The notes under the pieces were generated by a model. It saw nothing but the letters and a program-made list of their open reading frames with translations, was not told the origin of the DNA and did not search any database. A stretch of DNA of 64,000 nucleotides from IMG/VR virus record IMGVR_UViG_3300033121_001553, positions 122,820 through 186,819 of that record; one strand, given 5' to 3'. Made by a program: the position numbers and the translations under genes. This document shows positions 5,170 to 35,600 of this stretch, one piece after another; position 1 is the stretch's first letter; each line of letters begins with the position of its first letter. The stretch comes from a virus. Taxonomy: Duplodnaviria > Caudoviricetes.

Positions 5170-5435
5170 GATGTTTCTCTTTGGCTTATTATTGTTATTC
5201 CGGTAAGCGAGTGCCCAGAGTCTGGTGGACCTTCTGGATTCGTTGTTTGCCAATACTCGTGTTCACCGCCGGCAGTGTACCATCCACGCTTCAGATAAGT
5301 GACAGTTCGTGCAACTGATACATAAACTGTCACTGTTGACGTAAACGTAGGACGATCATTCTCAGAAAATGTTTGTATGTCTGATATGCCTGGTGTTACA
5401 GCTGATACGTCTGATGGTGTTTCTATTTGAGCCAT
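5166..5435 (-). CDS. hypothetical protein
   Basis: 89-aa ORF filling the gap, coupled to the next gene by GTGA overlap. Confidence 0.65.
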   Translation of the reverse strand: MAQIETPSDVSAVTPGISDIQTFSENDRPTFTSTVTVYVSVARTVTYLKRGWYTAGGEHEYWQTTNPEGPPDSGHSLTGITIISQRETS

Positions 5436-5447
5436 ATCATCTATGTA

Positions 5448-18207: not shown

Positions 18208-19124
18208 AAATTTACGTTCTTGCGCCAAAAGAAGATTGGATCTGTGATAGATTCGTAAAAGAGTGGTCGCAAGATAATACTGATATCACAACCGACAACA
18301 TTCATGATGCAGATATCATATGGCTGCTTGCTGACTGGTGCTGGAATCAAATCAGTCCACACATACTTAGATCGAAAATCGTCGTAGCGACAGTTCATCA
18401 TCTTGTTCCATCAAAGATGACATATCGAGCACGTAAAGAATTTGCTGAACGTGATGAATACATTGATCTATACCACGTACCGAATGTTCATACTAGACTT
18501 CAAATACTTGAGCTTACAGAAAAATCGAAATGCACAATTCCATTTTGGGCAAATCAAAAAATCTGGAAACGCACTAACGATAAAAAGACACTTAGAAAAA
18601 AGTATGGAATTGATGAAGATGCGTACATAGTCGGTTCATTTCAACGAGATACAGAAGGTAGCGATCTCGTAACTCCAAAATATGAAAAAGGTCCGGACCT
18701 GTTGGCTGACTATCTTGAGAAGATAAAGTCAGATAATCTTCATGTGCTTCTTAGCGGTTGGAGAAGGCAATACATCATAAAGCGCATCGAAGATGCGGGA
18801 ATAAACTACACATATATTCAGCTTCCACAGCAGCATGTGATCAATGAACTTTATCAAACGCTTGACCTGTATCCTGTCACTGCAAGATACGAAGGTGGAC
18901 CACAGTCACTTGTAGAATGCGGAATGCTTAATGTTCCTGTCGTATCAAGAGACGTAGGCATTGCAAGCGTTGTGCTGCCAAAAGAAGCAATTAACGATGA
19001 TGTTTCGCTTGCTACACCAGCCATACCAAATGTAGCTGAGCTTTTGCTTCCGCTTGGATACGACAAATTCAGAGAGATGTTTTACAATCTTTACTCAAGT
19101 ACTACACGATATGAAAAGATTTTA
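18204..19124 (+). CDS. glycosyltransferase family 4 (GT-B)
   Basis: EKGPD, RYEGGPQSLVECG..PVVSRDVG; first TTA at 19122-19124 (standard end 19268 overlaps the next gene by 158 nt). Confidence 0.85.
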
Positions 19125-19353
19125 TCTTCAAAGAGACGCAGATCACTCAGGCGTATCTGGCACCGGGAAAGTAGCAGAAGGCTGTCAGTTCGATACAAAG
19201 TGGTGTGCGTTGATATGGCTTACAGAGAAGTCATCCATGTGTTTCTACCCAGACATAGAAACGCTTGAGCATATTCATGGTCACAGCGGAAAAACAAAGA
19301 TTGTCTGGATAGATGATGAATCTTCTAACGTGGTGATTCAAAATGATAATTTA
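19111..19353 (+). CDS. conserved small phage protein
   Basis: RDADHSGVSGTGKVAEGCQF..HGHSGKTKIVW, a motif I recognise from phage hypothetical proteins; TTA 19351-19353 (standard TAG 19362). Confidence 0.75.
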
Positions 19354-20290
19354 CGTGAATAGAGAAACGATAAGAAAACCGTGGGGCGGCGGTGCACATT
19401 ACGTTAATGCGATATTCGACAACTGTAATGAAAACGTTGTTATCGACGATATAAGAACATTTCACTCTTACTCGTCTCTTCAAGCTCGTGGTGATGCTGT
19501 GATGCTGTGCTGTGGACTCGATGGAGATGATAAGCATCCAGTCGTAGAAGAGATGATAAACTACAGAAATTATGTTCGTGATAATTCTAGCACTTCGATA
19601 AAATTCTGTATCAGAGTTAATGAATGTGATGCACGAAAAGGTACGGTTGGCGTTGACCAGCGTGTTATGAAAGCGATAGCAGAAGCTGATGGTGTAATTT
19701 TCGTATCAGAATGGATGCGCGACTACTACACGTCACTCGGCGCTGCTCCAAAGCAATATGCTGTTATTTACAATGGTGTAGACAACGAAATTTATCATAA
19801 AAATGATAAGCCCAAGTCTTCAAACATTAGCGTTGTAACTCATCATTGGTCGAATAACCAAATGAAAGGATTTGATATTTACGACGAACTTGACAGAGCA
19901 CTTGGTGGTGAGCTTGGCAAAAAAATTGACTTTACGTACGTTGGACGTGACAGAGGAACATTCAAAAATACAAAAGTTGTTCAACCGCTGTACGGAGATG
20001 CACTCGGTAATGAACTACGCAAGCACAACGTATACATCTCAGCGAGCAGATTCGATCCGGGACCAAATCATATCATCGAAGCGCTCGCTTGCTTCGATAA
20101 TGTGTACGTCCACGCTGACGGTGGTGGATGCGTTGAATTTGCGGGAAATGATGCTACGTACAGAACGTTTGAAGAACTAGTTAACATGATACTGTCAAGA
20201 AAGTCAAATGCTAACGCAAAAAGTTTTGGTAGCTGGGAACAATGCGCAAAACAAACCTTCGAATTTCTTAAATTGGTATCTACGAAATGA
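19343..20290 (+). CDS. glycosyltransferase family 4 (GT-B)
   Basis: PWGGG, FVSEW, IYNGVD, SRFDPGPNHIIEALAC. Confidence 0.85.
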   Translation: MIIYVNRETIRKPWGGGAHYVNAIFDNCNENVVIDDIRTFHSYSSLQARGDAVMLCCGLDGDDKHPVVEEMINYRNYVRDNSSTSIKFCIRVNECDARKGTVGVDQRVMKAIAEADGVIFVSEWMRDYYTSLGAAPKQYAVIYNGVDNEIYHKNDKPKSSNISVVTHHWSNNQMKGFDIYDELDRALGGELGKKIDFTYVGRDRGTFKNTKVVQPLYGDALGNELRKHNVYISASRFDPGPNHIIEALACFDNVYVHADGGGCVEFAGNDATYRTFEELVNMILSRKSNANAKSFGSWEQCAKQTFEFLKLVSTK

Positions 20291-20721
20291 AAACAGCAAA
20301 AGTACCAGTTACAGACTACTACGGTTATCCACCAAGCAAGTTCGAAGGTCTTGTTGAAGATCTGATAGCGAAGAGGCTACAAGAGCTTGTCGAAGATGGA
20401 GTTACATTCGATGTAAACACGTCAGCCGTAATATCAAATCGTGAGTTGTGCAGCAGGGTTTATCTGATCATTCATGGCGTTATAGAAGAATGCCTGCAGA
20501 TCTGTAAGCTTGAGTCAACACGTGAATGCGTAGGTTACATCGTTCAGTCGTATTACAGCTCAATGCAAATAAACGATGCATTTTATTTTGATAAATCAAT
20601 AATAGAGCAACGTATTACAGTTGAAGATGTTCAAACTGCAGAGCTTAAAAAATTCGGTCCACTGTTTAGAGATGCTGACTTTGGAGTCGACATGATAAAT
20701 GAGCTCAAGAGACGTAACTGA
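20287..20721 (+). CDS. hypothetical protein
   Basis: 144-aa ORF, ATGA-coupled. Confidence 0.7.
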   Translation: MKTAKVPVTDYYGYPPSKFEGLVEDLIAKRLQELVEDGVTFDVNTSAVISNRELCSRVYLIIHGVIEECLQICKLESTRECVGYIVQSYYSSMQINDAFYFDKSIIEQRITVEDVQTAELKKFGPLFRDADFGVDMINELKRRN

Positions 20722-21464
20722 CGTAGCAAACCGTTTCCATTCGAACATTCACTTATCAACGCTGCTGTATCTATCCATCCCACTACAACGCGTGTGCCAA
20801 GTCCAGCAGCGCTAGGACCTGTATCTGTAGCAGATAGATACGGCAAACCATTTTTTTCTATTAGCTTACGTTTGCGTATTTTTACGCACTGCCCGCCATC
20901 GTCAACTTGACCTGCGTCTACGCTTGTTAGAACGTTATCATCCCACGAACATGCTATTAGTACATGTTCTAGGCCACCCTCTCCTATGATTACGATATCT
21001 CCAGGACGTGGCTTTATATCAAGTGTACGCTTAATCCAGAATTGTTTGCCGTGCTTTTTCTCTAGCGCAGGTGCTCCGTAGACTAGCTTTGAAACGTTTA
21101 CAGACACTTTCCACGCACTCATTTTTTCGTCGTCTTCGATATAGCCATTCCAGTTGTCGTCATCGCGGTTGACAATAACTGGATCTGTTACTCCGTTCAT
21201 CGACAAGATACAGTGCGCAAGATCTGCGCATGTTGAGTATCCCTTCCAGACATGTCTCCCTTCTGTAACAAAAAATAGTTTACAATTTTGATCGTATGAT
21301 GCATTTTTTGACTGAGATGCATCACTAAAGTACATTGCAGTATTGATAACATTCTCTGAGATTCCTTCACCTGAAAGCGAACGCGGATCGACATGATCAA
21401 ATTTCGATGTAACATTTTCAACTATTTCTTGACGTTTCGCTATCCAGTCATTGTACGTTATCAT
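20715..21464 (-). CDS. putative NlpC/P60/CHAP-like cysteine hydrolase
   Basis: YSTCADLA (Cys), PRPGDIVII..EHVLI (His), SVDAGQ; AGGTG SD; TTA 20715-20717 (standard end 20631). Confidence 0.6.
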
Positions 21465-21490
21465 TTGATCACCTTACCTTTAAGTATTCA

Positions 21491-22435
21491 ATGAAGATAC
21501 TCTTTTCAAACGTAAATTTTGGATCTCGCACAGGACCAAATACATTTGCAATGCGACTTGCGCTGCAGCTAGGTAATATGGGTCATGTTATCGCAGATCC
21601 AAATGACTATGATGTTGAGCTAACATTTATAGAAAATTCAGCCGGTAGGCTGAGTAGACCAGTTGTGCAAAGACTGGACGGTATCTGGTTTAAGCCCGAT
21701 GAGTATCATCTTAATAGCAGAATACAGTCGCTTTATAAGTCTAGTGACTATGTCGTGTGGCAGTCAGATTTTGATCGTCGCATGACAATAAAGCATTTTG
21801 GTGAAAAAATTTCCGGTGTCGTCATCAGTAATGGGTATCCGCTAAATAATGTGTCTTCGACTGTATACGAGATACACGAAGAAATTTTCAATCTAAAAAA
21901 CGAATATGACGTTATCTTCTGTTCATCTGCGAATTGGCATCCACAAAAACGTCTTACTGCAAACTACGATCTTTTTAAACTATGCGAAAAGCAGCTACGT
22001 AGCAACGGTAAGAAAGCTGCGTACATCATCATGGGTTCATCACCAGATATACGCATATCAGACAAAAATGTATTTTTTACTGGCAATGTAGAGCACGATG
22101 TGTGTTCATCTGTATACAGAGTGTCAGACTACATGATACATCTAGCGTGGCTTGATCACTGTCCAAATACAGTCGTCGAAGCGATAGCGCATGAATGTCC
22201 TGTCATATGTTCAAGCAGCGGTGGTACTCATGAGATTGTTAGTCCGTCTGGCGGTATAGTGATACAAGATGCAGACTACGGATTCGAGCTAATGAACTAC
22301 GATCGACCACCAAACATAGACATATCAAATTTCGTACTTCCAGCAGAAAAACCAAAAATCAACGCTGCATGCATTGACATTGTGAATGTCGCTAAGAAAT
22401 ATGAGCTTGTGTTCAATAAATTGTGTAATAAGTGA
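21491..22435 (+). CDS. glycosyltransferase family 4 (GT-B)
   Basis: QRLDG, WQSDF, HLAWLDHCPNTVVEAIA..PVICSSSGGTHE. Confidence 0.88.
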   Translation: MKILFSNVNFGSRTGPNTFAMRLALQLGNMGHVIADPNDYDVELTFIENSAGRLSRPVVQRLDGIWFKPDEYHLNSRIQSLYKSSDYVVWQSDFDRRMTIKHFGEKISGVVISNGYPLNNVSSTVYEIHEEIFNLKNEYDVIFCSSANWHPQKRLTANYDLFKLCEKQLRSNGKKAAYIIMGSSPDIRISDKNVFFTGNVEHDVCSSVYRVSDYMIHLAWLDHCPNTVVEAIAHECPVICSSSGGTHEIVSPSGGIVIQDADYGFELMNYDRPPNIDISNFVLPAEKPKINAACIDIVNVAKKYELVFNKLCNK

Positions 22436-22460
22436 ACAAAACTTATATATTGTGATAATA

Positions 22461-23585
22461 ATGCAAAAAAAGTACGACTACGCGATTGTTGGCGCTGGAC
22501 TATTTGGCGCAACGTTCGCTGAACGTGTGAAGCATTTCAACCCGTCTGCTAGAATTCTTGTAATCGACAAAAGAGATCACATCGCTGGAAACTGCTACAC
22601 TAGACGTGAAGATAACTACGATGTTCATGTTTACGGACCGCATATATTTCATACCAGCTCTGAGCGTATTTGGAATTACGTTAATAAATTTTCAAAGTTT
22701 AATAACTTTACGCTTAGAACAAAAGCGATGTACAAAAATCGCATTTATTCACTTCCTGTAAATTTGATGACGTTTCACCAAGTGTTCGGTGTGACTACGC
22801 CAAGCGAAGCAAAGAAACGCGTTGAATACGAAATACGTGCAGCTGCATCAAAAGGATACGACACTACAACATTCGAAGGATGGGCACGTACACAAGTAGG
22901 CGATACGCTTTACGAGATGTTCTACGATGGGTACACAAGAAAACAGTGGGGTAGACACCCAAATGAGCTGCCAGCTAGTATTGCAAAACGTCTCCCGATA
23001 CGTTTTATGTACGACGACAATTACTTTAACGATACGTATCAAGGGATACCTGTCGATGGCTACACAGCTATCGTAGATAAGATGCTGAGAGATACAGACG
23101 TACAGCTGAACACAGACTTTTTCGCTGAGCGCACTTTGATTGAAACGTTGGCTAATAAGATTGTCTATACTGGTCCAATCGACGCACTACTCAACTATAA
23201 ACACGGCAAGCTTGAGTATAGATCGCTGAAATTTGAACACAGCACGTTCAAAGGCGATTATCAAGGCAATGCTATCATCAACTATACAGATGTCGCTCAA
23301 AAGTGGACTCGTATTGTTGAGCATAAGCACTTTGTCGGCTCAACGTCAGAAAATTCGATATTCACAAAAGAATTTCCTGCATCGTACGAAAGTACGAATG
23401 AGCCTTATTATCCCGTAAATGACACAAAAAATAACGATATCGCATCATTGTACGCTGAAGATGCAAAAAAATTGAGCAATTATATCGTTGGTGGACGACT
23501 TGGAAGTTATCGTTATTATGATATGCATCAAGTGATTGCTGAAGCTTTGACAGCTGCACAAAAAGAAGGCTACTATGAAAAATGA
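22461..23585 (+). CDS. glf: UDP-galactopyranose mutase
   Basis: IVGAGLFG, HIAGNCY, HVYGPHIFHT, YFNDTYQGIP, EPYYPVND, GRLGSYRYYDMHQ. Confidence 0.96.
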   Translation: MQKKYDYAIVGAGLFGATFAERVKHFNPSARILVIDKRDHIAGNCYTRREDNYDVHVYGPHIFHTSSERIWNYVNKFSKFNNFTLRTKAMYKNRIYSLPVNLMTFHQVFGVTTPSEAKKRVEYEIRAAASKGYDTTTFEGWARTQVGDTLYEMFYDGYTRKQWGRHPNELPASIAKRLPIRFMYDDNYFNDTYQGIPVDGYTAIVDKMLRDTDVQLNTDFFAERTLIETLANKIVYTGPIDALLNYKHGKLEYRSLKFEHSTFKGDYQGNAIINYTDVAQKWTRIVEHKHFVGSTSENSIFTKEFPASYESTNEPYYPVNDTKNNDIASLYAEDAKKLSNYIVGGRLGSYRYYDMHQVIAEALTAAQKEGYYEK

Positions 23586-25236
23586 TTCTTACGTACTTGG
23601 GTTCTGGTCGGGTCATGATGCGTCTTACTGCGTTCTTGATGGTAGAGGCAGTATCGTTAGACACGTCGAGCTTGAACGTTACGTACGCCAAAAAGAGTGC
23701 GCAGGAGACATAGTTGAGTTTTTTCTTAACAATCACGCTAGCTCATTCGATCTTTCGAAAGTCGTTGGAATCGCGTTGTGTCACAATTCAAAAAATGTGA
23801 CAGAAAAATACGCTGTGTCTTGGAACAAGTTGCTTTCACTTATCCCACCAGATGTCGTAATCTCAACGTACGGTCATCACGAGGCTCACGCTGCGCATGC
23901 ATATTACAGCTCGCCGCATGATTCTGCGCTTGTTGTAACATGCGATGGAGGTGGATACGAAGATGAAAGCTGCGGAGAAACCGTAACAGGTACATGGTGG
24001 AAAGCAAAAAATAACGTTATCGAACGTGTGAAGCGTTTTGAATCAAATACGATAAATGTTGGTGGTCTATGGACACGCGTTACAAGATATGTTTTTAGAT
24101 GTGAAAGCGGATGGCCGCAAGGACATCAGGCTGGCACAATAATGGCAATGGCAGCATTGGGTAATTCAAGTCTATGGAAAGATGACTTTAGACTGATGTT
24201 TACACGTGATCATGCTGCAGCATGTTCAACGCCAGCTGGACATGTGAAGGGAATGAGCGCAAAAGATCCTCGTTCGCCAAAGCATAGCTTTCTACATAAG
24301 TGGGAAGAGCTAGCAAAAGATGAACAGACAAAATTTGATCTAGCTGCAGCATTTCAAGAGTGCACAGAAGAATATCTAGTCAAGCATTTCTCAGAGCTCG
24401 TGAATACTGTTGGCATTGGAGACAGCTACGATTGTGTATGTTTTGCTGGTGGTGTAGCGTTGAACTCTGTCGCAGTTGGCAAGCTTGAACGTGCAATAGG
24501 AAAGCAAATTTTTGTTCCACCTGTTCCTTACGATGGTGGGCTGTGTATAGGAGCCGCTCAGATACTGCTGCATAGACACTTTGGTGTTCCAAAGCTGAAC
24601 TCGTTTTGTAGTCCGTACATGGGAGCAACATACAGCACCATCGAAATTGAGCAAGCCATCACATCAGCTCAACTTGAAAATTACGTGATTAAACACAATG
24701 TTGAACTTAACGATGTAGTCAATGCACTTGCCGATCAAAAGATTGTTGCAGTATTCAACGGTAGCGCTGAAAGCGGTAGGCGCGCGCTTGGCAATCGTTC
24801 GATTCTTGCAGATCCACGCATGCATGCAATGAAGGCAAAGATAAACGAAAATGTGAAACATCGACAGTGGTTTAGACCATTCGCTCCATCGATACTACAG
24901 AAGCACGTTGCTGACTGGTTTGAACACGTCGTCTACAGCCCGTACATGACTCATGTCGTAAAATTCAAACATGACGCTGCAAAAAAAGTTCCCGCTGTTG
25001 TTCATTACGACGGATCTGCAAGACTGCAGACAGTGAATACATTCAATCAGTTTTACAATACGCTGCTTGAACTATGGAATGAAAAAACAGGTGTACCGAT
25101 ATTGCTTAATACATCTTTTAACGATCGAGAACCGATATGCGAAACGCCAAAGCACGCAATCGATTGTTTTCTTCGAACTGATATAGATGCGCTCTATTTT
25201 AACGATGCTAATATAATGATCGAAAGAAAATCATGA
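23575..25236 (+). CDS. carbamoyltransferase (NodU/CmcH family)
   Basis: GHDAS, HHEAHAAHAY, DGGG, AGGVALN, RALGNRSILADP, RPFAPS, LLNTSFN. Confidence 0.94.
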   Translation: MKNDSYVLGFWSGHDASYCVLDGRGSIVRHVELERYVRQKECAGDIVEFFLNNHASSFDLSKVVGIALCHNSKNVTEKYAVSWNKLLSLIPPDVVISTYGHHEAHAAHAYYSSPHDSALVVTCDGGGYEDESCGETVTGTWWKAKNNVIERVKRFESNTINVGGLWTRVTRYVFRCESGWPQGHQAGTIMAMAALGNSSLWKDDFRLMFTRDHAAACSTPAGHVKGMSAKDPRSPKHSFLHKWEELAKDEQTKFDLAAAFQECTEEYLVKHFSELVNTVGIGDSYDCVCFAGGVALNSVAVGKLERAIGKQIFVPPVPYDGGLCIGAAQILLHRHFGVPKLNSFCSPYMGATYSTIEIEQAITSAQLENYVIKHNVELNDVVNALADQKIVAVFNGSAESGRRALGNRSILADPRMHAMKAKINENVKHRQWFRPFAPSILQKHVADWFEHVVYSPYMTHVVKFKHDAAKKVPAVVHYDGSARLQTVNTFNQFYNTLLELWNEKTGVPILLNTSFNDREPICETPKHAIDCFLRTDIDALYFNDANIMIERKS

Positions 25237-26531
25237 TAACGGATACACCCGACAAGTCACGTCATAAGGCAACGATAACAAAAAAATTGCGTGAGCAGAT
25301 AGCTTCGTACGCTGGAAGCGATAAAGTTTTTTTGGAGCTGGGGTGCGATGTTGGTTACACATCTATTGCGCTTGCCGACAGTTTTGGTAAGCTACATGCT
25401 TACGATATTGAGCGATGGAAAATAGAAGAATGCAGAAAAAATGCTTCTAAATTTAACAAAGCAAATATTGAATTTCATAACAAGAAAACGACCGACATAT
25501 CGACAGGTCATTACGACGTTATTCTGATAGATGCGAATCACGAGTACAAAAATGTAAAACGTGACTATGAAGCAGCACTTTCTGCAAATACGTCAAATGA
25601 CTACATCGTCATATTTCACGACTACGGACTTGTTGAAGCAGGCGTAAAAAAATTCGTTCAAGAAATTGGCGGATATGAGCTGATCGGAGAAAAAGAAAAT
25701 TGGAATCCTCATGGCGGTAAAGTCAATGACTATGAGGCAGCCATTGTAAAAGTAAAAAAAAAGATTGAAGTCGTTACAGACGGTGGACCAAAAATATTTG
25801 TCGGTACAGCATATTCGTGTGAAAATGAATTTGACGAGTGCGTCAAAAGAATTAATTCGCAAGAGCAGGTAACGATAGTTGAACATAAAATTGTTAGTGG
25901 CCAAGGCGTGCTAGAAGCTCTTAGCGCTCTCTACAGTAGATGGAATGAGCTAAAAACTGAATGCGACATGTTTGTACAAGTTGACGCAGACATGGTTATT
26001 AAAAGAAATGATCTATTCAAGTGCGCTTGGCAACAGTTTAAACACAATACGCAAGGCTGCAACTACATGCAGCTAACAGTCTACGATCATTTCACTATGT
26101 CTGAGATAGGCGGAATGAATTTCTACAGACCAAGCGTTGTGTTTCCGCAACCTAAAAATCGTCTTGGACCAGATAAAGAAACGCTAGATAAAAAGCAGCT
26201 GCGTAACTCTAACAATCTGATCTCGTCTGCAGCCGATCATTGCCCGAATCCAAACGAAATTCAGTCATTTCATTATGGCTGGCATCGTCGACTAAGACAA
26301 AAGTACGAGATTGAAAATTCGATTCAAAATGCTGTAAAACGTCATAAAACAGACAAACTTGTAGATATGCGCATTTGGGCATTGCTCGGTATAAAATTTG
26401 CAGCAGCTCACGCAAAGTCAAAAATAGAAAATAAGCTTGAGCACGTCGACTACTCGAATCAGCATTTCATGAATGCATTTGAAGAAGCAAAATCGCAGTT
26501 TGACTCGTTCAAGAAAGAGATGCTAAAGTGA
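25233..26531 (+). CDS. class I SAM methyltransferase fused to GT-A-like domain
   Basis: LELGCDVG, LIDANHEY, FHDYG; C-terminal FVQVDADM. Confidence 0.78.
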   Translation: MITDTPDKSRHKATITKKLREQIASYAGSDKVFLELGCDVGYTSIALADSFGKLHAYDIERWKIEECRKNASKFNKANIEFHNKKTTDISTGHYDVILIDANHEYKNVKRDYEAALSANTSNDYIVIFHDYGLVEAGVKKFVQEIGGYELIGEKENWNPHGGKVNDYEAAIVKVKKKIEVVTDGGPKIFVGTAYSCENEFDECVKRINSQEQVTIVEHKIVSGQGVLEALSALYSRWNELKTECDMFVQVDADMVIKRNDLFKCAWQQFKHNTQGCNYMQLTVYDHFTMSEIGGMNFYRPSVVFPQPKNRLGPDKETLDKKQLRNSNNLISSAADHCPNPNEIQSFHYGWHRRLRQKYEIENSIQNAVKRHKTDKLVDMRIWALLGIKFAAAHAKSKIENKLEHVDYSNQHFMNAFEEAKSQFDSFKKEMLK

Positions 26532-27628
26532 GCGATAGAGAACATCACGAAGAACTTACACAGCTGTATTCTACGTGGGGAGACAAGCTGCTGCAGCACG
26601 CAGATCGCTTGAATGAAATTCAAAATGAACGTGTTATCAGACCAATAACAATTCAGATATCTCCGACAGAAGGCTGTCAAAGTAGCTGTCCATTCTGCAG
26701 CGTTTCTGGTCGACCGTTGAACGCGTACATGCCATACGCAAAAATTGTCAAGCTGCTCGAAGACTTCAAGTCGCTTGGTGCAAAAAGCATTGAGCTAACG
26801 GGCGGCGGTAATCCGCTGCTTTACAAAGATCGTGTAACGAAACAAAACATTAATGACGTTATTTCTACAGCACATTCACTTGGCTACGAAATAGGAATAA
26901 TCACAAATTCAGAAAAACTAACTGTTATCGACAAACAGCATTATGATAAAATAAGTTGGATACGCATTAGTCTAATACGACTAGATGAAGGATGCGAACC
27001 AGAAGACTACGACTTTAAAGATTTTCCATACGAGAAGCTAGGATTTTCTTACATCGTTTACGATGAATGTGCGAGTGATCCTGTAAGAAAGCGTTACTAC
27101 GAAGGCACATCTGAGTCTACAATTGCAAAAATAGCGAAGCTAGTAGAGCTTCATAGTGGAAAGATAAAATTCGTACGTTTTGCTGGCGACTGTCTCATAA
27201 AGGGAAATAACTCGCTTGTACGACGTAAGTTCGGCGATGTCATTCAGTCGAATGACACATACAAGAAATTTTTTCTAAAGACCATTGATACGAATGACGA
27301 TGCATTTAAACATGGATGCTATGTGGGTATGATACGACCGTACATTGCACCAGCACCAGATGGTAGCGGATACAATGTTTACATCTGTACTTCGCATGTT
27401 CTTAACAGTAGAACTTACGACAAAGACTACTCATTGTGCAGCGTAGATAACGTGATTGAAGCGTGGAATGATATGAATAAGTCGTTCCGTAGCAATGGTT
27501 ACCCATACAGCGTACGTGGTAACTGCGGCAAAAATTGGAATGAAACATGCAAGTATTGTTATTACTCAAATAACAACAAATTGTTGCATACTGTTGCAAA
27601 CGAAATGCCAGATAAAAATTTCCCATGA
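26528..27628 (+). CDS. radical SAM protein with C-terminal auxiliary-cluster (SPASM/twitch-like) region
   Basis: CQSSCPFC, LTGGGNP, C-terminal Cys including CKYCYY. Confidence 0.9.
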   Translation: MSDREHHEELTQLYSTWGDKLLQHADRLNEIQNERVIRPITIQISPTEGCQSSCPFCSVSGRPLNAYMPYAKIVKLLEDFKSLGAKSIELTGGGNPLLYKDRVTKQNINDVISTAHSLGYEIGIITNSEKLTVIDKQHYDKISWIRISLIRLDEGCEPEDYDFKDFPYEKLGFSYIVYDECASDPVRKRYYEGTSESTIAKIAKLVELHSGKIKFVRFAGDCLIKGNNSLVRRKFGDVIQSNDTYKKFFLKTIDTNDDAFKHGCYVGMIRPYIAPAPDGSGYNVYICTSHVLNSRTYDKDYSLCSVDNVIEAWNDMNKSFRSNGYPYSVRGNCGKNWNETCKYCYYSNNNKLLHTVANEMPDKNFP

Positions 27629-28236
27629 GCCCATATAACGAATCTTACTACACTCAAAAAAACTACATTAGCTATCTTGAACGACGAGAACGTTACACAA
27701 GAATGATAAATGAGCTCAACGATAGACTAATAAAGCCACTTGCGCTCGATAAGTTCTTGAAGCATGGTACGATCGTCGACTATGGCTGCGGCGTTGGATT
27801 TTCAACAAAAGCTCTTATTGAAATCGGTTACAAGGCTATTGGCTACGATCCTTCTGTGTGGGCTGTGGAATGGGGTAAAAAAAATCTTGGTCTCAAGGGT
27901 ACAGAGATAACAGATAAAAAAAATGAGATTCCTGGTCATTGTTCACTTATGCTTTCATTCGACGTATTTGAGCACATGTCCAGCGACGAAATAGCTGATA
28001 CATTGGCGTACTTTTCGCCGATATACTTGCTTGTTCGCATACCTCTTGCAAATACCGACAACGGAGATTATGTTCTGAGTGTATCAGAAAATGATCCAAC
28101 GCATATTATGCGTCTAACGCGTAGCTCGTGGAATCTTCTGCTACGTGAATGTAGATACGAATGGCTCTACGACGTAAATCTTACAATGTTTTACGATAGC
28201 GACGGTGTAATGTGTTCAATGTACAGAAAATATTTA
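27625..28236 (+). CDS. class I SAM-dependent methyltransferase
   Basis: VDYGCGVG, FDVFEH, DPTHI; ends KY-TTA-AAG-TGA (standard end 28242). Confidence 0.88.
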
Positions 28237-28256
28237 AAGTGATGCAAGAGGTAAAA

Positions 28257-29330
28257 ATGTCGAACGTCAAACCATCTATTGCTGTTATTGGTCAAGGCTT
28301 TGTCGGAGGTTCTCTTGCGACTGTTTTCGCTGAACGTGGATTCGATGTCTACGTTTACGATATCGCAGGAAAGTCAGCACCTGGCGCAGTAGAAAAAAAG
28401 TTCAATTCTGTACATGAGCTTGTAACAGCTTGTATCGCTACACCAGGTTTTAGCGGCGTTTATTTTCTTTGCGTTCCGACTCCAATGAATGTAGATGGCA
28501 GTGCAGATCTCAGCATTGTACAGTCAGCGCTTTACGAAGTTGTAGCATCGAATAAGCATCGTGCAGACGTCTGTAAGACTGTTGTTATCAAGTCAACGAT
28601 ACCGCCCGGAACAACAGAAACATTTAATCGTGATCTTGAAGTCACAAATACAAAAGTAGTCTTTAGCCCAGAATTTCTGACAGAAGCTAACGCGCTTGAC
28701 GATATGAGAGAACAGTCAAGAATTATTCTTGGTGGACCGCGACCGTATATCAATACTGTAAAACAAGTATTTTTGAAGGCTTTTCCAACACGTCCAATTA
28801 TTAAAACAAATAGCACAACTGCTGAAATGGTAAAATATTTCACCAATATACAGCTCGCCGCAAGAGTTGTATTGAGTTGTGAACTTGCTGAGATTTGTGA
28901 GTTGCTCGATAAGCGCGGATACAACATCGACTACGATAAGGTTCTAGAGTATGCGAAGTACGATGAGAGACTAGGTAATAGTCATATGAATGTCCCAGGA
29001 AATGATGGAATTCCTGGTGCACGTGGCCACTGCGTAATTGCTGGTACAGTTGTTAAAATGCGTAATGACGTAAACGGTAAAAATGTAGAAAATTTGAAAG
29101 CACTAGATGAAATTGATAGCTGCGATGCGTTGCTTACGCAGAATGAATCGAAATATGTAAAATCAGCATCAATGCGAAAATACAATGGTATGGTTTATAC
29201 ATTTGTCGTTGGCGATAAACGTGTAACATGCACACCAGAGCATATACTGCCAGTATATAGAGACGGTAAGATCGTTCTATCACGCGCCGAAGACATTACA
29301 ACATCTGATGAACTATTTGTTGCAGAATGA
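28257..29330 (+). CDS. ugd: UDP-glucose 6-dehydrogenase N-extein plus split intein N-half
   Basis: GQGFVG, CVPTP, IKSTIPPG, FSPEFL, AEMVKY, GARGH; then intein block A (CVIAGT) and block B (TCTPEH). Confidence 0.92.
   Translation: MSNVKPSIAVIGQGFVGGSLATVFAERGFDVYVYDIAGKSAPGAVEKKFNSVHELVTACIATPGFSGVYFLCVPTPMNVDGSADLSIVQSALYEVVASNKHRADVCKTVVIKSTIPPGTTETFNRDLEVTNTKVVFSPEFLTEANALDDMREQSRIILGGPRPYINTVKQVFLKAFPTRPIIKTNSTTAEMVKYFTNIQLAARVVLSCELAEICELLDKRGYNIDYDKVLEYAKYDERLGNSHMNVPGNDGIPGARGHCVIAGTVVKMRNDVNGKNVENLKALDEIDSCDALLTQNESKYVKSASMRKYNGMVYTFVVGDKRVTCTPEHILPVYRDGKIVLSRAEDITTSDELFVAE
29031..29327 (+). mobile_element. split intein, N-terminal half (99 aa)
   Basis: Starts with Cys1 after GARGH; TxxH motif; ends at TGA with no HN. 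Confidence 0.9.
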
Positions 29331-30049
29331 AAAATTCACAAGTCGAAATTACATGTAAATTCTGTAATACTATTTTCTCTGTTGAATACAAACATAGAAA
29401 AAAAGTATTTTGCAATCGCAAATGCATGAATCTTTATTACAGAGGTGAAAATTCAACCTCGTTTGGTAAAACGTATAGAACAAAAGAAACACATCCAGAA
29501 TGGGCAAAAAAGGTATCAGATACGCATAAGCTGCGTAGAACATTGGTCGATAACAATCCAATGAAAAATCCTGATATTGCAAAAAAAGCAAGCGAAACAA
29601 GAAAAAAACTTTTGCAAGATCCTGCAAAACGTAAAATCATTGCAGATGCAATGAGAAAAGCGTGGGCAGACGGTAAATTTGCAAATGTTAATGTTGGAAA
29701 ATGTAAATGGTTTTCATTCACAAAACGCAACGGTGAAATATGTAAAGTTCAGGGCAAGTGGGAATTGGCTTATGCAAAATGGCTTGACGAAAATCATATC
29801 AACTTCAAAACGCATATTGGAAGATTTCAATATGCGTTTGATGATGGTACGATAAGAAATTACTACCCTGATTTTTATCTTGTTGATGATGATCGTTACG
29901 TTGAAATTAAAAATGCATATCATCATAGCATCAATAAAAATAAAATTGATGCTGTTCGTTCGATGAATCCTAACGTTAGGATTGATCTATTGTTTAAAGA
30001 TGACTTGGTAGAGCTAGGTGTATTCAATGATAACAAAGAAAAAAATTGA
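29327..30049 (+). CDS. free-standing homing endonuclease (Zn-finger/NUMOD-like plus PD-(D/E)XK domain)
   Basis: CKFC..FCNRKC, NNPMK, QGKWE, YYPDFYL..YVEIK; AT-rich; lies between the intein halves. Confidence 0.85.
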   Translation: MKNSQVEITCKFCNTIFSVEYKHRKKVFCNRKCMNLYYRGENSTSFGKTYRTKETHPEWAKKVSDTHKLRRTLVDNNPMKNPDIAKKASETRKKLLQDPAKRKIIADAMRKAWADGKFANVNVGKCKWFSFTKRNGEICKVQGKWELAYAKWLDENHINFKTHIGRFQYAFDDGTIRNYYPDFYLVDDDRYVEIKNAYHHSINKNKIDAVRSMNPNVRIDLLFKDDLVELGVFNDNKEKN

Positions 30050-30161
30050 AAAAATTTTGATAGAAAATTATGTTGGTGATGTTTACAACATAGAAGTTGT
30101 ATCAAATGATGACGCAAATGATGATCTGTACTGGATTTGCAACGGTATCGTTGTGCATAAC
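30027..30161 (+). mobile_element. split intein, C-terminal half (45 aa)
   Basis: Blocks F/G ending His-Asn, followed by Cys+1. Confidence 0.9.
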
Positions 30162-30320
30162 TGCTTTCCCAAAGACCTTAATGCGCTTATCGCAAAAGCA
30201 AAAGAAGTTGGCCATAGCGCAAAATTGCTAAGTGCAATAAATGAACGTAATCTTGAAATTGTAAAACCTGAGCATCGTGACTGGGAACGTATGCTTGGTA
30301 GAGCAGTCACAAAAAAATAA
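30027..30320 (+). CDS. ugd: split intein C-half plus UDP-glucose dehydrogenase C-extein
   Basis: AGGTG SD; VYNIEV..NGIVVHN followed by CFPKDLNAL (catalytic Cys motif). Confidence 0.92.
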   Translation: MITKKKIEKILIENYVGDVYNIEVVSNDDANDDLYWICNGIVVHNCFPKDLNALIAKAKEVGHSAKLLSAINERNLEIVKPEHRDWERMLGRAVTKK

Positions 30321-30689
30321 CTTATCTATCTCGTTCATAAATGATTTCGCAATTTGTTGAGGGGAAAGTTCGAATAGTTCTACTTCATCAAATTGCGAAA
30401 TGTATCTCATAAGATCGTTTACGTTGAATGACTTACCTGACTTACTAAGGTAATTTCTTACTTGAACGAATTTATTTCTTTTTGGATCATTTCCGCGAAG
30501 ATTGATTTCTTCTTCATCTGCTTCTATATTTGCAGCGCTGTGAGCCCAACCGATTGGTTTTCTACCGTAACTTGGTGGCAGCATTGTTGCTTTTGATGGT
30601 GGAACAGTTGGGTCATCTGATGCTTCCATATAAAGCTGGACGTATTCTTTGATAAGCCTTCTGATTTTTGCTTTGTCATTTGTAAACAT
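30318..30689 (-). CDS. hypothetical protein (RRLIKE motif, possible internal head protein)
   Basis: GAGG SD; its TTA is the exact complement of the ugd TAA (standard end 30228). Confidence 0.7.
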
Positions 30690-30801
30690 TTTAGCTACCT
30701 CTTATATTTATGGTCATGCATTAGGTTCATTCAAGAGGCCCTCCAAATTTTTGCGCCGTAAAGTTGTGTATAACTTGTTGTTGTGAATTTTGGAGGATAA
30801 G

Positions 30802-31113
30802 ATGAAAAAGTATGAATATTTGTATGCGTATGCTAGAAATTTGATTAGAGCAGAACTACGTGGTATTGAATTGACTGCAAAGTCAATAAAACGACGTAAA
30901 GCAAAAAAAGATTTGTTGCTCTCATGCCGTGCTAGGAATTTGATTCTTGCTCGAGCATTTTTGCTTGGTAAGAATTATTTGCAAGCAGAACGTAAAGCAA
31001 AAATCTCTCCAGTCCCTGAGGAAATATCAAAAACGATTAGAAGCTATTTCCCGAATGCTGTAATGTGTCCAACAAGCGAAGAGATACGGCAATGGATGAA
31101 AAGCTGTATATTA
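30802..31113 (+). CDS. basic hypothetical protein
   Basis: GGAGG SD; LARAFLLGKNYLQAE; TTA 31111-31113 (standard end 31248). Confidence 0.7.
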
Positions 31114-31406
31114 TCGTTCGTAAGGATCTGCCATACGGCGCGCAGTTTGCTCAAGCGATACACGCTGTTGCAGAATTTGCAATTGAGCATAACGATCTTT
31201 ATCGCGAATGGCATTCGACAACAAATACAGTTGTTGTGCTTAGCGTAAAAGATGAAACAGAATTGTTGAAAATTCAACAGCTTTCTATTGAAAATGGAAT
31301 CGCGCATTCTCTTTTTAGAGAACCAGACTACTCTGGTTCTGCGACTTCAATTGCGTTGAAATCAAAGAAAATAAAATTTCTAAACAGACTCAAGCTCGCA
31401 AATTTA
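31092..31406 (+). CDS. peptidyl-tRNA hydrolase, Pth2-like
   Basis: LYIIVRKDL..GAQFAQAIHA..TVVVL..FREPD..TSIAL; ends TTA-TGA. Confidence 0.82.
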
Positions 31407-31417
31407 TGAGTCTGATA

Positions 31418-31488
31418 GCGTCATTTGCGTAGTGGCAACGCAGTTGATTCTAAATCGACTTACGCGGGTTCGATTCCCGCATGACGCA
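31418..31488 (+). tRNA. tRNA with CTA anticodon (amber suppressor type)
   Basis: Acceptor GCGTCAT/ATGACGC, D-arm GCGT/ACGC, anticodon arm GTTGA-TT CTA AA-TCGAC, T-arm GCGGG TTCGATT CCCGC; short variable loop. Confidence 0.88.
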
Positions 31489-31490
31489 CG

Positions 31491-31949
31491 ATGAACTACA
31501 TCGAACTAATTGTTGGCGATCCATTTAAACGTGGTCATGCGATGAAGTCAACTGTTCGTGTTGAATGCACGCAAGATGCATTCGCTGTCTCGTCTGCATA
31601 TAAAGAAGGATGCGCAGTAGTGGGATTCGATATAACAGAAGAATACAGTTCAGATGACTCGAACGAAGTTATATCTGAAGAGCGCGTTGAAATACTCAAG
31701 TCGATAGATTTTGCTGGCGTTATCTTTCACGATAAAGATGGATTGTATCGACTGTCACCACGCAGTTACGCAGAAATTTATATGTTTATCGCTAACATCG
31801 GAGACAGTAGCATAAAGTACAAAGTTCTGAATGATCCTGACTACAAACTTGAAATTGGCGGTTACGGAATTTTTAACAAAGTAGCACGTCAAGAAAATGT
31901 AGAAGTTGAATTCAAAGATCCAGAACGATCGAAAAAACGTAACAAATGA
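31491..31949 (+). CDS. hypothetical protein
   Basis: 152-aa ORF; GDPFKRGH and IGGYGIF motifs. Confidence 0.72.
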   Translation: MNYIELIVGDPFKRGHAMKSTVRVECTQDAFAVSSAYKEGCAVVGFDITEEYSSDDSNEVISEERVEILKSIDFAGVIFHDKDGLYRLSPRSYAEIYMFIANIGDSSIKYKVLNDPDYKLEIGGYGIFNKVARQENVEVEFKDPERSKKRNK

Positions 31950-32104
31950 TGAATGTTCATGTTCACTGCAACGACTGCGGTCGTGCTGTTGAACAACGCG
32001 ATACGTGGCGTTGTTTGTGGTGTTATCGTACGATCTGCGCGTATTGCTATATTTTTCACAGTACAGAAATGCATGGTGACAAATACATAAAACGCGATAA
32101 ATTA
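31946..32104 (+). CDS. small Cys-rich (Zn-finger-like) protein
   Basis: CNDC, CLWC, CAYC; ends at in-frame TTA 32102-32104. Confidence 0.55.
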
Positions 32105-32110
32105 ATATGC

Positions 32111-32359
32111 GTGAATTGGACCGTTAGCGACAATTACGCAAAAGCAGCTGTTGCTGCGTGTAAAGCTACTCCTGATGCTGTTGAATCGATACTACGAGAA
32201 AAACACGGCGGTTGGAGTAGACTGATAGCGAAGATGCAAAAAGAGAATCAAGAGCTAACATGCGTTGCTAGCTGTTGGATGGCCATTCGCGATGTTATAG
32301 AAGAAATCAAACGAATAAAGGCGATGAATGCAACAACAGACAACGGAAAAAAAACTTAG
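32111..32359 (+). CDS. hypothetical protein
   Basis: In-frame GTG two codons after the TTA; helical composition; TAG stop. Confidence 0.45.
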   Translation: MNWTVSDNYAKAAVAACKATPDAVESILREKHGGWSRLIAKMQKENQELTCVASCWMAIRDVIEEIKRIKAMNATTDNGKKT

Positions 32360-33119
32360 AGTACTACCAACGCTAAAGTCGCACATCTCATTCAGCGAAA
32401 TGAGAGAGTGGAATGAGTGTCCGCACAGACATTACATTTCTCAAGTGAAAAAACTCATGCCACCTCAAAATTCTGAGGAGCTTGTAGTTGGTAAACTCAT
32501 ACATGCTGCGATTGAAAATAAGTTTACGAATGGTACTAAGTCGATCTCAGAGCTTGTTCAAGAGTGCATTGAGTTGAACAAAGAATACGAGCTAGACTAC
32601 ATAACGCTTACAGAGTCTTGCGAAAAAGCGACAACGTCTGCTTACAACTGCATAGCGGAAAAAATAAAGAATTTTCGTGTTCACTCTGTTGAAGAACAGT
32701 TGTATGAAATAATTGATGATGAAAAATACAATGATGTAGCATTCAACGGTTACATTGACGCTGTATTTTACGATGTTGATAACGATGTGTATTGGATAGT
32801 AGACTGGAAAACAACTCGTAGTGGCTGGAATTCGTACAAACGACTTGACGAAAAAACACATGCGCAGCTTGTCTACTACAGAAATTACTGGTCAAAAAAG
32901 CACAACGTGCCAGAGCATAAAGTACGTTGTGCTTTTGTGTTGCTATCAAAGTCTGGTTGGACAACAGAATTTTTCGAGATACAGATGTCCGTACCAAAAA
33001 CAGAACGCTGTCTATCAATGCTTAGAAGCACTGTTAATGGTATATCACGTGGGCTTGTTTTCAAAAACAAGCATTCATGTACTTATTGCCCAATACGTTG
33101 GACAGAACTCTGCCCTTAA
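32328..33119 (+). CDS. PD-(D/E)XK exonuclease, Cas4/RecB-like
   Basis: SFS..ECP, GKLIH, GYID..IVDWKT, QL..Y, CTYC..C (Fe-S staple pattern). Confidence 0.88.
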   Translation: MQQQTTEKKLRVLPTLKSHISFSEMREWNECPHRHYISQVKKLMPPQNSEELVVGKLIHAAIENKFTNGTKSISELVQECIELNKEYELDYITLTESCEKATTSAYNCIAEKIKNFRVHSVEEQLYEIIDDEKYNDVAFNGYIDAVFYDVDNDVYWIVDWKTTRSGWNSYKRLDEKTHAQLVYYRNYWSKKHNVPEHKVRCAFVLLSKSGWTTEFFEIQMSVPKTERCLSMLRSTVNGISRGLVFKNKHSCTYCPIRWTELCP

Positions 33120-33162
33120 ATATCTTTGTACATTTGCTGCGCTTGCATTAAAAAGTAGATAA

Positions 33163-34428
33163 ATGCTACTCAAGCCAGCAACGCAGCAACAGAAGTACAA
33201 GATAATGATGCTATCAGACCACCCGCTTTCTGTAAGCGGTGTTGGATGTCAAGCACGTTATCTGTCGATGGGACTAATCAATACAGGAAAGTACACATTT
33301 CGTTGTCTTGGCGGCGCAATTAAGCATGAAAATTACGAAGTTGTAGCGCCGCATCCAGATATGATTATTAAGCCAGTCGATGGATTTGGTACTCGCGAGA
33401 TGCTACGTGTCTTTCTTGCGACTGAGAAACCTGACGCGGTTCTGCTTTTTACAGATCCGCGTTTTTTTATTTGGGTTTGGGAGATGGAAGACGAAGTGCA
33501 CCAAGTCTGCCCGATAGTCTATAACCATCTCTGGGATAACTATCCGTGGCCAGACTTCAATAGAGTGCTCTATGAGTCTACTGACTTGCTGAACTGTATA
33601 AATTGGCCGACGTATCAAATGTTGAAGGAGCGCTTTCCAGAGAAAACGCATTACGCGCCGCATGCGCTACCAACAGAGATATTTCACACTATTCCAGATG
33701 AAGATGCTGCAGCTGTGCGTGATAGAATACTGAACGGGAAGAAAACAGAATTTCTGCTTACATGGGTTAGCAGAAACGCAAGAAGAAAACTTCCGTCGGA
33801 TGTTATCGCATCTTGGAAACTATTTCTCGACGATCTTGAGTCAAAATACGGTCATAGAAACGCAAAGCTTCTTATGCATACCGATCCGTACGATCAGGAA
33901 GGACCGAACCTTATTCATGTCGCTGGTATGCTAGGTGTTAATGACTCTGTTATTTTTTCAACAGAGAAAGCTTCATTTCAAGACATGAATGCGTTGTATA
34001 ACGCATCAGATGCTTGCATCAATATTTCAAACGCAGAAGGATTCGGTCTTGGCATACTTGAGTCTCTGTATACTGGAACGCCGGTCATCGCTATCAAAAC
34101 TGGCGGGCTAACACGACAAGTTGTAAATCCATACGATGGATTCATAAATGGCGTTGCACTAGAACCAGAAGTAAAGTCGCTAGTAGGCTCTCAGCTTGTG
34201 CCGTACATCTACGAAGACTACGTAAGTCATCGCTCTGTTGCTAACGGCATCATGCAGATGTACGAGTACGGTCCTGAAAAACGAAAAGAGATCGGTAAGC
34301 GTGCAAAAGAATACGTCCTATCAGAGTACAGCATGAACAGACTCATAGAAACTTGGGACACGACGCTAGAAAATACAATACTAAATTGGCGAGCGAACAG
34401 CAAGCGTTGGGAGATGATTAAGCTATGA
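33163..34428 (+). CDS. glycosyltransferase family 4
   Basis: SGVG, RNARRK, EGFGLGILESL..GTPVI. Confidence 0.9.
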   Translation: MLLKPATQQQKYKIMMLSDHPLSVSGVGCQARYLSMGLINTGKYTFRCLGGAIKHENYEVVAPHPDMIIKPVDGFGTREMLRVFLATEKPDAVLLFTDPRFFIWVWEMEDEVHQVCPIVYNHLWDNYPWPDFNRVLYESTDLLNCINWPTYQMLKERFPEKTHYAPHALPTEIFHTIPDEDAAAVRDRILNGKKTEFLLTWVSRNARRKLPSDVIASWKLFLDDLESKYGHRNAKLLMHTDPYDQEGPNLIHVAGMLGVNDSVIFSTEKASFQDMNALYNASDACINISNAEGFGLGILESLYTGTPVIAIKTGGLTRQVVNPYDGFINGVALEPEVKSLVGSQLVPYIYEDYVSHRSVANGIMQMYEYGPEKRKEIGKRAKEYVLSEYSMNRLIETWDTTLENTILNWRANSKRWEMIKL

Positions 34429-35600
34429 AAAAGATATTGCTCAGAGGTCCGTTTCTAACACAGAGCGGGTACGGTGTTCATGCGCGTCAAATTTTCAAGT
34501 GGGTTAAGTCACTTGGCGTAAATTTTGATGTTCAAGTGCTACCATGGGGCGACACAAGCTGGTACACAAATCCGTCAGAGCTCGATGGCATGATCGGCGA
34601 GATAATGATGAAAACAAAGCCGATAGAAGGTCAGTACGATGTATCCATACAGCTACAGCTACCAAATGAGTGGGACACAAAACTAGCAAAATTCAATGTA
34701 GGTGTAACTGCTGCTGTTGAAACAGACAAATGCAATCCACGTTGGATAGAGTGCTGTAATGCTATGGATGTTGTTGTTGTTCCATCGAAATTCACAAAAA
34801 ACGTTATAATGAACACAGCAACGGCGTTCGGACTGAAGGTACGTGAGCCTCACGTCGTTGGCGAAACATTTAACGAAGCAGCGTATCACAGCAATTACGA
34901 TACAGGCATCGACTTTCAAACAACATGTAACTTTCTCATATTTGGTCAGCTAGTGGCTAGAGATGATGACATGGATCGTAAAAATGTTCTAAGAGCGATA
35001 AAGCTTCTGTCAACAACATTCAGCGATGATCCAGACGTTGGTATCGTTATAAAAACAAACTCTGGACGTAACTCTTTGATCGATCGAAAAGTGACAATTG
35101 GCTCGCTAAAAACCGTACTAGATAAGATACCGCATCCAAGACCGCCTGTCTATCTGCTACACGGAAATATGTCTGATGAAGAAGTGTATAGTCTCTACAA
35201 GTCAAATAAACTAACAGCGCTTGTAGCGCCAACTAAAGGTGAAGGTTTCGGATTGCCGATACTAGAAGCAGCAGCATGTAATCTACCTGTTATCGCGACA
35301 AATTGGTCTGGTCATCTTGATTTCCTTGAAAGCGGAAAATTTAGTCCAATTGCATACAAGCTAAAGCAAATAGCTCCACAGCGAGTTGACAACAACATAT
35401 TCATGACTGGAACACGTTGGGCTGATATCGACAACGATGACTTTGTTAAACGTGTTAAGCGCATTCGTGCAAATAGCGCTGAGGCTCGAAGCAATGCACT
35501 CGCGCTCGGAGAAAACGTTAGAAAGAAATTCTCAGAGCATGCTATCTTTACGCAGTGGAGCAGCGCAGTCGGTTACGCTCTTGCTGATTCTGCGAAATGA
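34425..35600 (+). CDS. glycosyltransferase family 4
   Basis: SGYG, RKN, GEGFGLPILEAAACNLPVIATNWSGHLDF. Confidence 0.9.
   Translation: MKKILLRGPFLTQSGYGVHARQIFKWVKSLGVNFDVQVLPWGDTSWYTNPSELDGMIGEIMMKTKPIEGQYDVSIQLQLPNEWDTKLAKFNVGVTAAVETDKCNPRWIECCNAMDVVVVPSKFTKNVIMNTATAFGLKVREPHVVGETFNEAAYHSNYDTGIDFQTTCNFLIFGQLVARDDDMDRKNVLRAIKLLSTTFSDDPDVGIVIKTNSGRNSLIDRKVTIGSLKTVLDKIPHPRPPVYLLHGNMSDEEVYSLYKSNKLTALVAPTKGEGFGLPILEAAACNLPVIATNWSGHLDFLESGKFSPIAYKLKQIAPQRVDNNIFMTGTRWADIDNDDFVKRVKRIRANSAEARSNALALGENVRKKFSEHAIFTQWSSAVGYALADSAK

Follow-up and report, generated by a model that had tools for sequence, protein, structure and literature searches.

Background

Whether an enzyme gene that is broken directly before the codon of its catalytic residue can still yield an intact product is the question raised by a locus in a 64,000-nt stretch of viral DNA (Duplodnaviria; Caudoviricetes), positions 122,820 to 186,819 of the IMG/VR record IMGVR_UViG_3300033121_001553. 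This whole stretch is called the window below. At window positions 28257-30320, a gene of the UDP-glucose dehydrogenase (UGDH) family is encoded in two fragments, and a third gene lies between them. An earlier note, made from the sequence alone, proposed that the gene is fractured at its catalytic Cys by a naturally split intein, an endonuclease gene lying between the intein halves; the open reading frames (ORFs), the intein motifs and the distribution of one enzyme domain over the two fragments bear this proposal out. We consider it likely, with a probability of about 85%, that the locus is a genuine fractured gene: a short two-domain dehydrogenase-family gene broken before its catalytic Cys by a naturally split class-1-type intein, for which protein trans-splicing is predicted.

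Structure of the fractured locus

The locus consists of the following features, all on the plus strand; IntN and IntC are the N- and C-terminal intein halves.

28257-29330, plus: N-fragment ORF, N-extein followed by IntN; a possible other start, the ATG at 28242, overlaps the stop of the preceding gene
28257-29030, plus: N-extein of a short UDP-glucose/GDP-mannose-dehydrogenase-family enzyme, 258 aa, C-terminal GARGH; PF03721 and PF00984
29031-29330, plus: IntN and TGA stop (99 aa coded by 29031-29327); block A CVIAGT with Cys1, block B TCTPEH, tail SDELFVAE
29327-30049, plus: free-standing gene for a 240-aa homing-endonuclease-like protein; zinc finger, helical NUMOD-like repeats, C-terminal PD-(D/E)XK domain
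30027-30320, plus: C-fragment ORF, IntC followed by C-extein
30027-30161, plus: IntC, 45 aa; head MITKKKIEKIL, block F-like VYNIEVV, block G NGIVVHN
30162-30320, plus: C-extein and TAA stop (52 aa coded by 30162-30317); starts with CFPKD and the +1 Cys, ends with GRAVTKK

The coordinates of the locus and the lengths given earlier for the two exteins and the two intein halves hold to the residue. Both parts of the enzyme gene lie in one locus and in one orientation; the break is flanked by the halves of a split intein, which enclose an endonuclease gene of its own, and this is the layout of a fractured gene. The three genes overlap tightly: the endonuclease gene is read in another frame than the extein genes, and its ATG and the IntN stop overlap as ATGA; the C-fragment ORF, with AGGTG 6 nt 5' of its ATG, overlaps the 3' end of the endonuclease gene by 23 nt. 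Across the endonuclease region the frame of the N- and C-fragments contains eight stops, so that one sequencing error in a contiguous intein does not account for the locus. A promoter and terminator scan of 27500-31000 gave fewer sites than in shuffled sequences and no sign of separate expression signals, which is consistent with co-transcription of the three genes.

In the N-fragment, the N-terminal NAD-binding domain PF03721 scores 92 bits. The central domain of the family, PF00984 (UDPG_MGDP_dh), is divided between the fragments: the N-fragment matches profile positions 2-64 (33.9 bits), and the C-fragment matches positions 62-92 (23.7 bits); thus, the exteins abut exactly at the break, and the break lies within one domain.

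The interrupted enzyme and its predicted product

A homologue search over 5.8 billion proteins returned more than 7,000 relatives, and 120 listed homologues were inspected for their domains. The closest relatives fall into three classes: intein-free proteins of 300-335 aa, with 60-68% identity over the N-extein; N-fragments of 350-380 aa, which end a few residues past DELF as in the window; and contiguous-intein proteins of about 465-471 aa, represented by P0015 (465 aa) and P0243 (471 aa). When joined, the window exteins form a 310-aa protein colinear with the abundant intein-free viral homologues, including their C-terminus (...RDWE.M.GRAV.KK). The intein-free proteins P0007 and P0035 (311-312 aa), which read ...GARGHCFPKD...RDWEKM.GRAVSKK, correspond to the predicted spliced product. 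In the rebuilt motif GARGH-CFPKD (hyphens in motifs mark the splice junctions) the +1 Cys occupies the position of the catalytic nucleophile of the UGDH family; GHCFPKD of P0007 aligns with the active-site GGSCFPKD of the solved UGDHs 4a7p, 3gg2 and 3vtf.

A 310-aa product without the C-terminal UDP-binding domain had been anticipated, and this is what the domain searches revealed. PF03720, the C-terminal UDP-sugar-binding domain, occurs neither in the gene nor anywhere else in the 186.8-kb record. It is also missing from all 120 listed homologues, which contain PF03721 and PF00984 only, and the short form is therefore a family trait. The neighbours in ESM-Atlas, mostly viral and 280-338 aa long, are two-domain proteins as well. 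Since the nucleotide-binding domain is missing, the protein is classed here as a short two-domain UGDH-family enzyme and not as a proven UDP-glucose dehydrogenase.

The intein halves and their contiguous counterparts

The residues that would be required for splicing are conserved. Cys1 and the Thr and His of block B (TxxH) are invariant in nine diverged alleles that are only 35-50% identical, the terminal His-Asn is kept in every aligned intein-bearing allele, and the +1 Cys is present in all sequences aligned; in the window, block G meets the extein as NGIVVHN-CFPKD. The contiguous alleles P0015 and P0243 carry mini-inteins at the same site, in which about 10 residues bridge the split point, and the window halves align to these mini-inteins with a gap only in the loop at the break. 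The tail of IntN is acidic (net charge -3 over the last 25 residues), and the head of IntC is basic (+2 over the first 15).

An AlphaFold2 (AF2) model of the 150-aa mini-intein from a contiguous allele (P0015; locus L081) adopts the HINT fold with a mean local confidence score (pLDDT) of 94.8 and a predicted TM score (pTM) of 0.87. Foldseek matched this model with probability 1.00 to the NrdJ-1 split intein (8ubs, TM 0.78), and to gp41-1 (6qaz, TM 0.74 normalised to the model and 0.85 to the target). The Mtu RecA and Npu DnaE inteins were matched with the same probability, and TM scores to many solved inteins were 0.7-0.85. The identity in sequence to the solved inteins listed, gp41-1 and NrdJ-1 included, is 10-20%, and a phmmer search of PDB sequences with the contiguous allele matched its extein only and no solved intein. 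A phmmer search of 1.84 billion representative proteins with the phage mini-intein yielded no more than 18 clusters. Nearly all are short UGDH-like proteins of the viral type that carry the insert at this same site; the element therefore belongs to a distinct, site-specific intein lineage.

The intervening endonuclease

The 47 homologues of the intervening gene product share an N-terminal CxxC...CxxxC zinc finger, helical repeats (NP.YGK.YRTK..HPEWA; NGMKNPEVAKR) and a C-terminal nuclease domain. The active site is formed by E146, P181-D182 and E193-x-K195, of which E146, P181, D182 and K195 are invariant in these homologues. The family profile (A4) matches T7 endonuclease I (1m0d) with E 8.5e-10, PDF...VE.K being aligned, and several homologues carry a precomputed PF05367 annotation. 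With the window protein alone, no PF05367 match was obtained in Pfam at E<=1 and phmmer found nothing among PDB sequences at E<=10, so that T7 endonuclease I was reached by the family profile only. The AF2 model of the endonuclease has a pLDDT of 91.7. Foldseek with the whole model returned no match at E<=0.001; VIA-align of residues 124-235 gave Z scores of 9.3 to TnsA, 7.2 to I-Bth0305I and 6.7 to Vsr, all with the restriction-endonuclease fold. Assignment to the GIY-YIG or the Vsr-like EDxHD type was rejected, as the site is of the canonical PD-(D/E)XK type, contains an invariant Lys and is not His-based. By its profile match and intact catalytic residues, the protein is related to T7 endonuclease I. 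The family is present in a single copy in the 186.8-kb record.

Recurrence, selection and mobility

The same three-gene layout was found in the loci L001/L002 from IMG/VR, L083-85 from three JGI samples, L087-89 from three SRA runs, and L086, a 94%-identical relative (at the protein level) with the same neighbours. C-fragments that are at least 90% identical form a cluster on 21 contigs, whose representative is 99% identical to the window protein, and the endonuclease cluster (representative 100% identical) occurs on five contigs. The earlier description of a split intein in a sugar-pathway gene as unusual has to be tempered accordingly: its location in such a gene stands, while the split allele is common in viral metagenomes.

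Relative to L086, the N-extein, IntN and the endonuclease are all under purifying selection, with ratios of nonsynonymous to synonymous divergence (dN/dS) of 0.044, 0.094 and 0.18 and synonymous divergence (dS) of 0.62, 0.28 and 0.07, respectively. Nucleotide identity to the same relative is 95-99% over 29343-30242 versus 83-97% in the flanks, a low divergence that would give this segment the look of a recently homed one. On an extein tree of 75 viral loci the intein-bearing alleles are scattered, with at least five changes of state, two of them forced by well-supported branches; endonuclease presence on the same tree requires 11 changes.

Predicted splicing and homing

In the proposed mechanism, the three genes, which overlap tightly, are probably transcribed together. 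Once translated, IntN and IntC would associate through the acidic tail of the former and the basic head of the latter, and the two halves would fold into a HINT domain. Splicing is then expected to proceed by an N-S acyl shift at Cys1, trans-thioesterification to the +1 Cys, cyclisation of the terminal Asn, and an S-N shift by which GARGH would be joined to CFPKD. The predicted product is the 310-aa enzyme, in which the active-site Cys would acquire its native context after splicing only. The endonuclease presumably cuts intein-less alleles in co-infecting phages, and would thereby spread itself together with the flanking intein halves.

Alternative explanations

Several observations weigh against this interpretation. 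The low divergence over the endonuclease rests on one pairwise comparison (with L086). The HINT model represents an allelic contiguous intein, about 41-47% identical to the window halves, and not these halves themselves. The intein profile PF14890 scores 20.4 bits on IntN (E 4.7e-4) and 10.6 bits on IntC, below its cut-off of 35.8, each half covering part of the profile. The enzyme lacks the UDP-binding domain and is thus no more than a putative nucleotide-sugar dehydrogenase. Finally, all aligned alleles, contiguous ones included, have Asn (VYN or VHN) at the block F position. In the split inteins Npu DnaE and gp41-1 this position is Asp.

The replacement of the usual Asp by Asn in every allele speaks for the best surviving alternative, namely that the halves assemble non-covalently, or that the intein serves as an association module without splicing, the enzyme being a two-chain complex. 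Such a case has a parallel in an endonuclease-split NrdA of a phage, which is reported to work as a two-chain complex (PMC3045599). We nevertheless regard it as unlikely for the window locus. Cys1, TxxH, HN and the +1 Cys are all retained across the diverged alleles; the Asn variant is also found in the contiguous P0015 and P0243, which must splice in cis to free the active-site Cys; and without splicing the catalytic Cys would sit behind the 45-aa IntC.

A pseudogene in decay, broken up by a mobile endonuclease and heading for loss, is a more improbable reading still. Its position in an accessory glycan island, where the stretch between the dehydrogenase and a downstream PDDEXK_1 nuclease gene is variable, could be read in this way. 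This explanation is opposed by the strong purifying selection on both exteins and IntN (dN/dS 0.044 and 0.094), by the intactness of all ORFs in at least five diverged lineages, and by the tight overlap of their starts and stops.

The two outcomes named beforehand as fatal to the split-intein reading, stops that are assembly or sequencing errors in one contiguous endonuclease-containing intein and an RNA intron joining the halves, can be dismissed almost entirely, since the frame holds eight stops and the endonuclease uses another frame with its own ATG, since the identical architecture recurs in independent assemblies from JGI, ENA, Logan and IMG/VR, with the C-fragment and endonuclease clusters spread over 21 and five contigs, and since an Rfam search of 27500-31500 revealed one tRNA and no intron family (no group I or II model at E<=1).

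Comparison with known systems

Fractured genes were described by Dassa, London, Stoddard, Schueler-Furman and Pietrokovski in 2009 (PMC2677866), with gp41-1/-8, NrdJ-1, NrdA-2, IMPDH-1, DnaE, ligase and terminase loci. The published hosts, eight types in all, are without exception enzymes of DNA synthesis or repair, and the endonucleases are of the GIY-YIG or Vsr-like type (PMC2677866). The window locus shares with these genes a conserved enzyme gene divided in two at one locus in its original orientation, split-intein halves with an endonuclease ORF between them, overlapping or tightly packed frames, a phage or metagenomic setting, and allelic variants with and without the endonuclease. It differs from them in that the host gene belongs to sugar metabolism, that the endonuclease is a canonical, T7-endonuclease-I-like PD-(D/E)XK enzyme, and that the intein lineage is as remote from gp41-1 and NrdJ-1 as from the other solved inteins listed (10-20% identity). 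A fractured PolB gene with an HNH endonuclease is known from a jumbo phage (PMC6892783). In that gene, too, the endonuclease ORF lies between the intein halves, whereas the host is a replication enzyme, the endonuclease belongs to the HNH family, and the intein has Ser1 and a +1 Ser.

The I-Bth0305I, or EDxHD (Vsr-like), homing endonucleases possess an EDxHD motif with a His-based site (PMC3239194; PDB 3r3p). The window endonuclease resembles I-Bth0305I in its association with split inteins and in combining N-terminal helical DNA-binding repeats with a C-terminal nuclease of the restriction-endonuclease fold (Z 7.2 over 82 residues, 23% identity). In contrast, its site is E...PD...(D/E)xK with an invariant Lys, it has a four-Cys zinc finger at the N-terminus, and its profile points to T7 endonuclease I, 3r3p being not among the matches.

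An intein allele termed 'udp' has been reported in archaeal and bacterial UDP-glucose 6-dehydrogenases, including those of Methanocaldococcus jannaschii, Halobacteria and Methanococci (PMC4071816, PMC4760082). A search of bacterial and archaeal genomes with the pattern HN-CFPKD matched at least 120 stretches, and 80 loci were analysed. In 37 of the 80, among them those of Halorubrum xinjiangense and Halonotius pteroides, a contiguous insert of 173-494 aa lies in the same ORF between an extein end such as GGS and HN-CFPKD; most inserts are about 450-490 aa long, a size that would fit a nested endonuclease domain. The earlier statement that contiguous inteins exist in UGDH genes is thus confirmed for the same site. 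Judged by these junctions, the published 'udp' allele probably occupies the insertion point of the window intein, GGS-C...HN-CFPKD; on that reading, the phage element would be a split intein that evolves separately at an insertion point already known. The inserts in cells are contiguous and reside in full-length three-domain UGDHs, whereas the phage intein is split and its endonuclease is a separate gene of another family.

A literature search in which few subscription journals were covered revealed no split intein in a gene of the UGDH family or of another nucleotide-sugar dehydrogenase, nor this endonuclease type in the fractured-gene layout. The layout itself is known; the class of host enzyme is new to it, and the endonuclease comes from a lineage that has not been described in it. 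The fractured-gene arrangement with a split intein thus extends past enzymes of DNA synthesis and repair to a glycan-pathway enzyme, and a zinc-finger, T7-endonuclease-I-like PD-(D/E)XK enzyme joins the endonucleases associated with split inteins. The split intein, naturally of 99/45 aa with Cys1/Cys+1, is a candidate tool for orthogonal ligation because of its low identity to the solved inteins listed. The gene family also offers natural material on the entry of free-standing endonucleases into inteins, since it comprises intein-less alleles, alleles with an adjacent endonuclease, mini-intein alleles and split alleles.

Endonuclease homologues beside intein-less alleles

An intein-less dehydrogenase gene with a homologue of the endonuclease directly downstream is present at nine of the 75 distinct viral loci.

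L012, L013, L019-L021, L036, L038, L042 and L052, ~4950-5700 in most: free-standing endonuclease homologues between the intein-less dehydrogenase and PDDEXK_1 genes

Seven of these homologues are 39-46% identical to the window protein and have intact catalytic residues; two other endonuclease matches, in L034 and L043, are weaker and partial. The usual gap between the dehydrogenase and PDDEXK_1 genes is 39-127 nt, and in the loci listed it is about 825 nt and holds the endonuclease, about 180 bp from the intein site. In the endonuclease tree, the downstream copies cluster together and adjoin the intein-resident copies of L083/L085. A neighbouring 239-aa minus-strand ORF at the mini-intein locus L081 was also considered; it has no Pfam match and is not an endonuclease homologue.

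The endonuclease-adjacent alleles mostly carry a variant active-site motif, GGS-CF[I/V/C]KD. Ser replaces His at position -1 in eight of the nine (14 of 60 among other intein-less alleles), and I, V or C replaces Pro at position +3 in six of the nine (6 of 60). The association of endonuclease presence with these variants is strong in the raw counts; it comprises only four phylogenetically independent pairs, for which a sign test was not significant. As a lead only, the pattern would fit an endonuclease that targets the GGH-CFPKD-coding stretch.

A tentative and rather doubtful extension of the fractured-gene interpretation is that the family still shows, next to one another, the proposed stages in which a homing endonuclease that was free-standing joins an intein in a 'collaborative homing' system. 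The first stage would be represented by intein-less alleles that have the endonuclease in the adjacent intergenic spacer, some 180 bp away from the intein site; the second by contiguous mini-inteins without an endonuclease; and the third by split inteins with the endonuclease inside. The endonuclease would target the GGH-CFPKD-coding stretch, and immunity could be conferred either by interruption of this stretch by the intein or by the motif variants GGS-CF[I/V/C]KD. As the catalytic Cys would depend on splicing, the phage could possibly also time or redox-gate glycan synthesis by this route.

Genomic context of the fractured gene

The window is the terminal 64 kb of a linear 186.8-kb record, for which CheckV estimates about 52% completeness; the source is therefore a large uncultured phage, probably of jumbo size. 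A megablast search with 27600-30700 against 50,697 GenBank phage records gave zero matches, and tblastn with an intein-free homologue found only UGDH genes of <=31% identity and no cultured relative. The fractured gene sits within a glycan-synthesis island of about 20 kb, which encodes three GT2 and several GT4 glycosyltransferases and methyltransferases; a large stretch of the island is at 14664-27628. Upstream genes of the island include the following.

22386-23585: UDP-galactopyranose mutase (PF03275, E 3.6e-73)
23575-25236: carbamoyltransferase
26528-27628: radical SAM protein

On the 3' side, the fractured gene is followed by a PD-(D/E)XK (PDDEXK_1) nuclease gene and then by two further GT4 genes. 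This order, short dehydrogenase, PDDEXK_1 nuclease and two GT4 genes (28257-35600 in the window), is kept across many diverged viral contigs (loci L001-L089). The upstream sugar genes differ by locus: a DegT aminotransferase and a formyltransferase are found in L083, and NeuB and a CMP-sugar transferase in L087. At 31065-31488 the window encodes a PTH2-like peptidyl-tRNA hydrolase (PF01981, E 1.2e-11), followed directly by a tRNA (31418-31488, Rfam 62 bits); the PTH2 gene is present in the close relative L086 too.

The genome has 41% GC, and TTA is rare among Leu codons, with 22 of 1,239 in 40 long ORFs (>=200 codons) of the whole window and zero in the three genes of the fractured locus (28257-30320). 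If TTA were a stop, a convergent minus-strand ORF would end at 30318-30320, the same triplet as the TAA of the C-fragment.

A second intein was found in the same virus record, outside the window, in the ribonucleotide reductase large subunit (G000:C1:64517-65368, minus strand, locus L210; PF02867 265 bits, PF14890 48 bits). It is contiguous and contains an HNH endonuclease domain (weak match to HNH_3). At L081/L082 (7054-9398), a 797-aa GT4 glycosyltransferase downstream of the mini-intein allele carries an intein as well (PF14890, Hint_2), and the glycan genes of these phages seem to have been invaded by inteins repeatedly.

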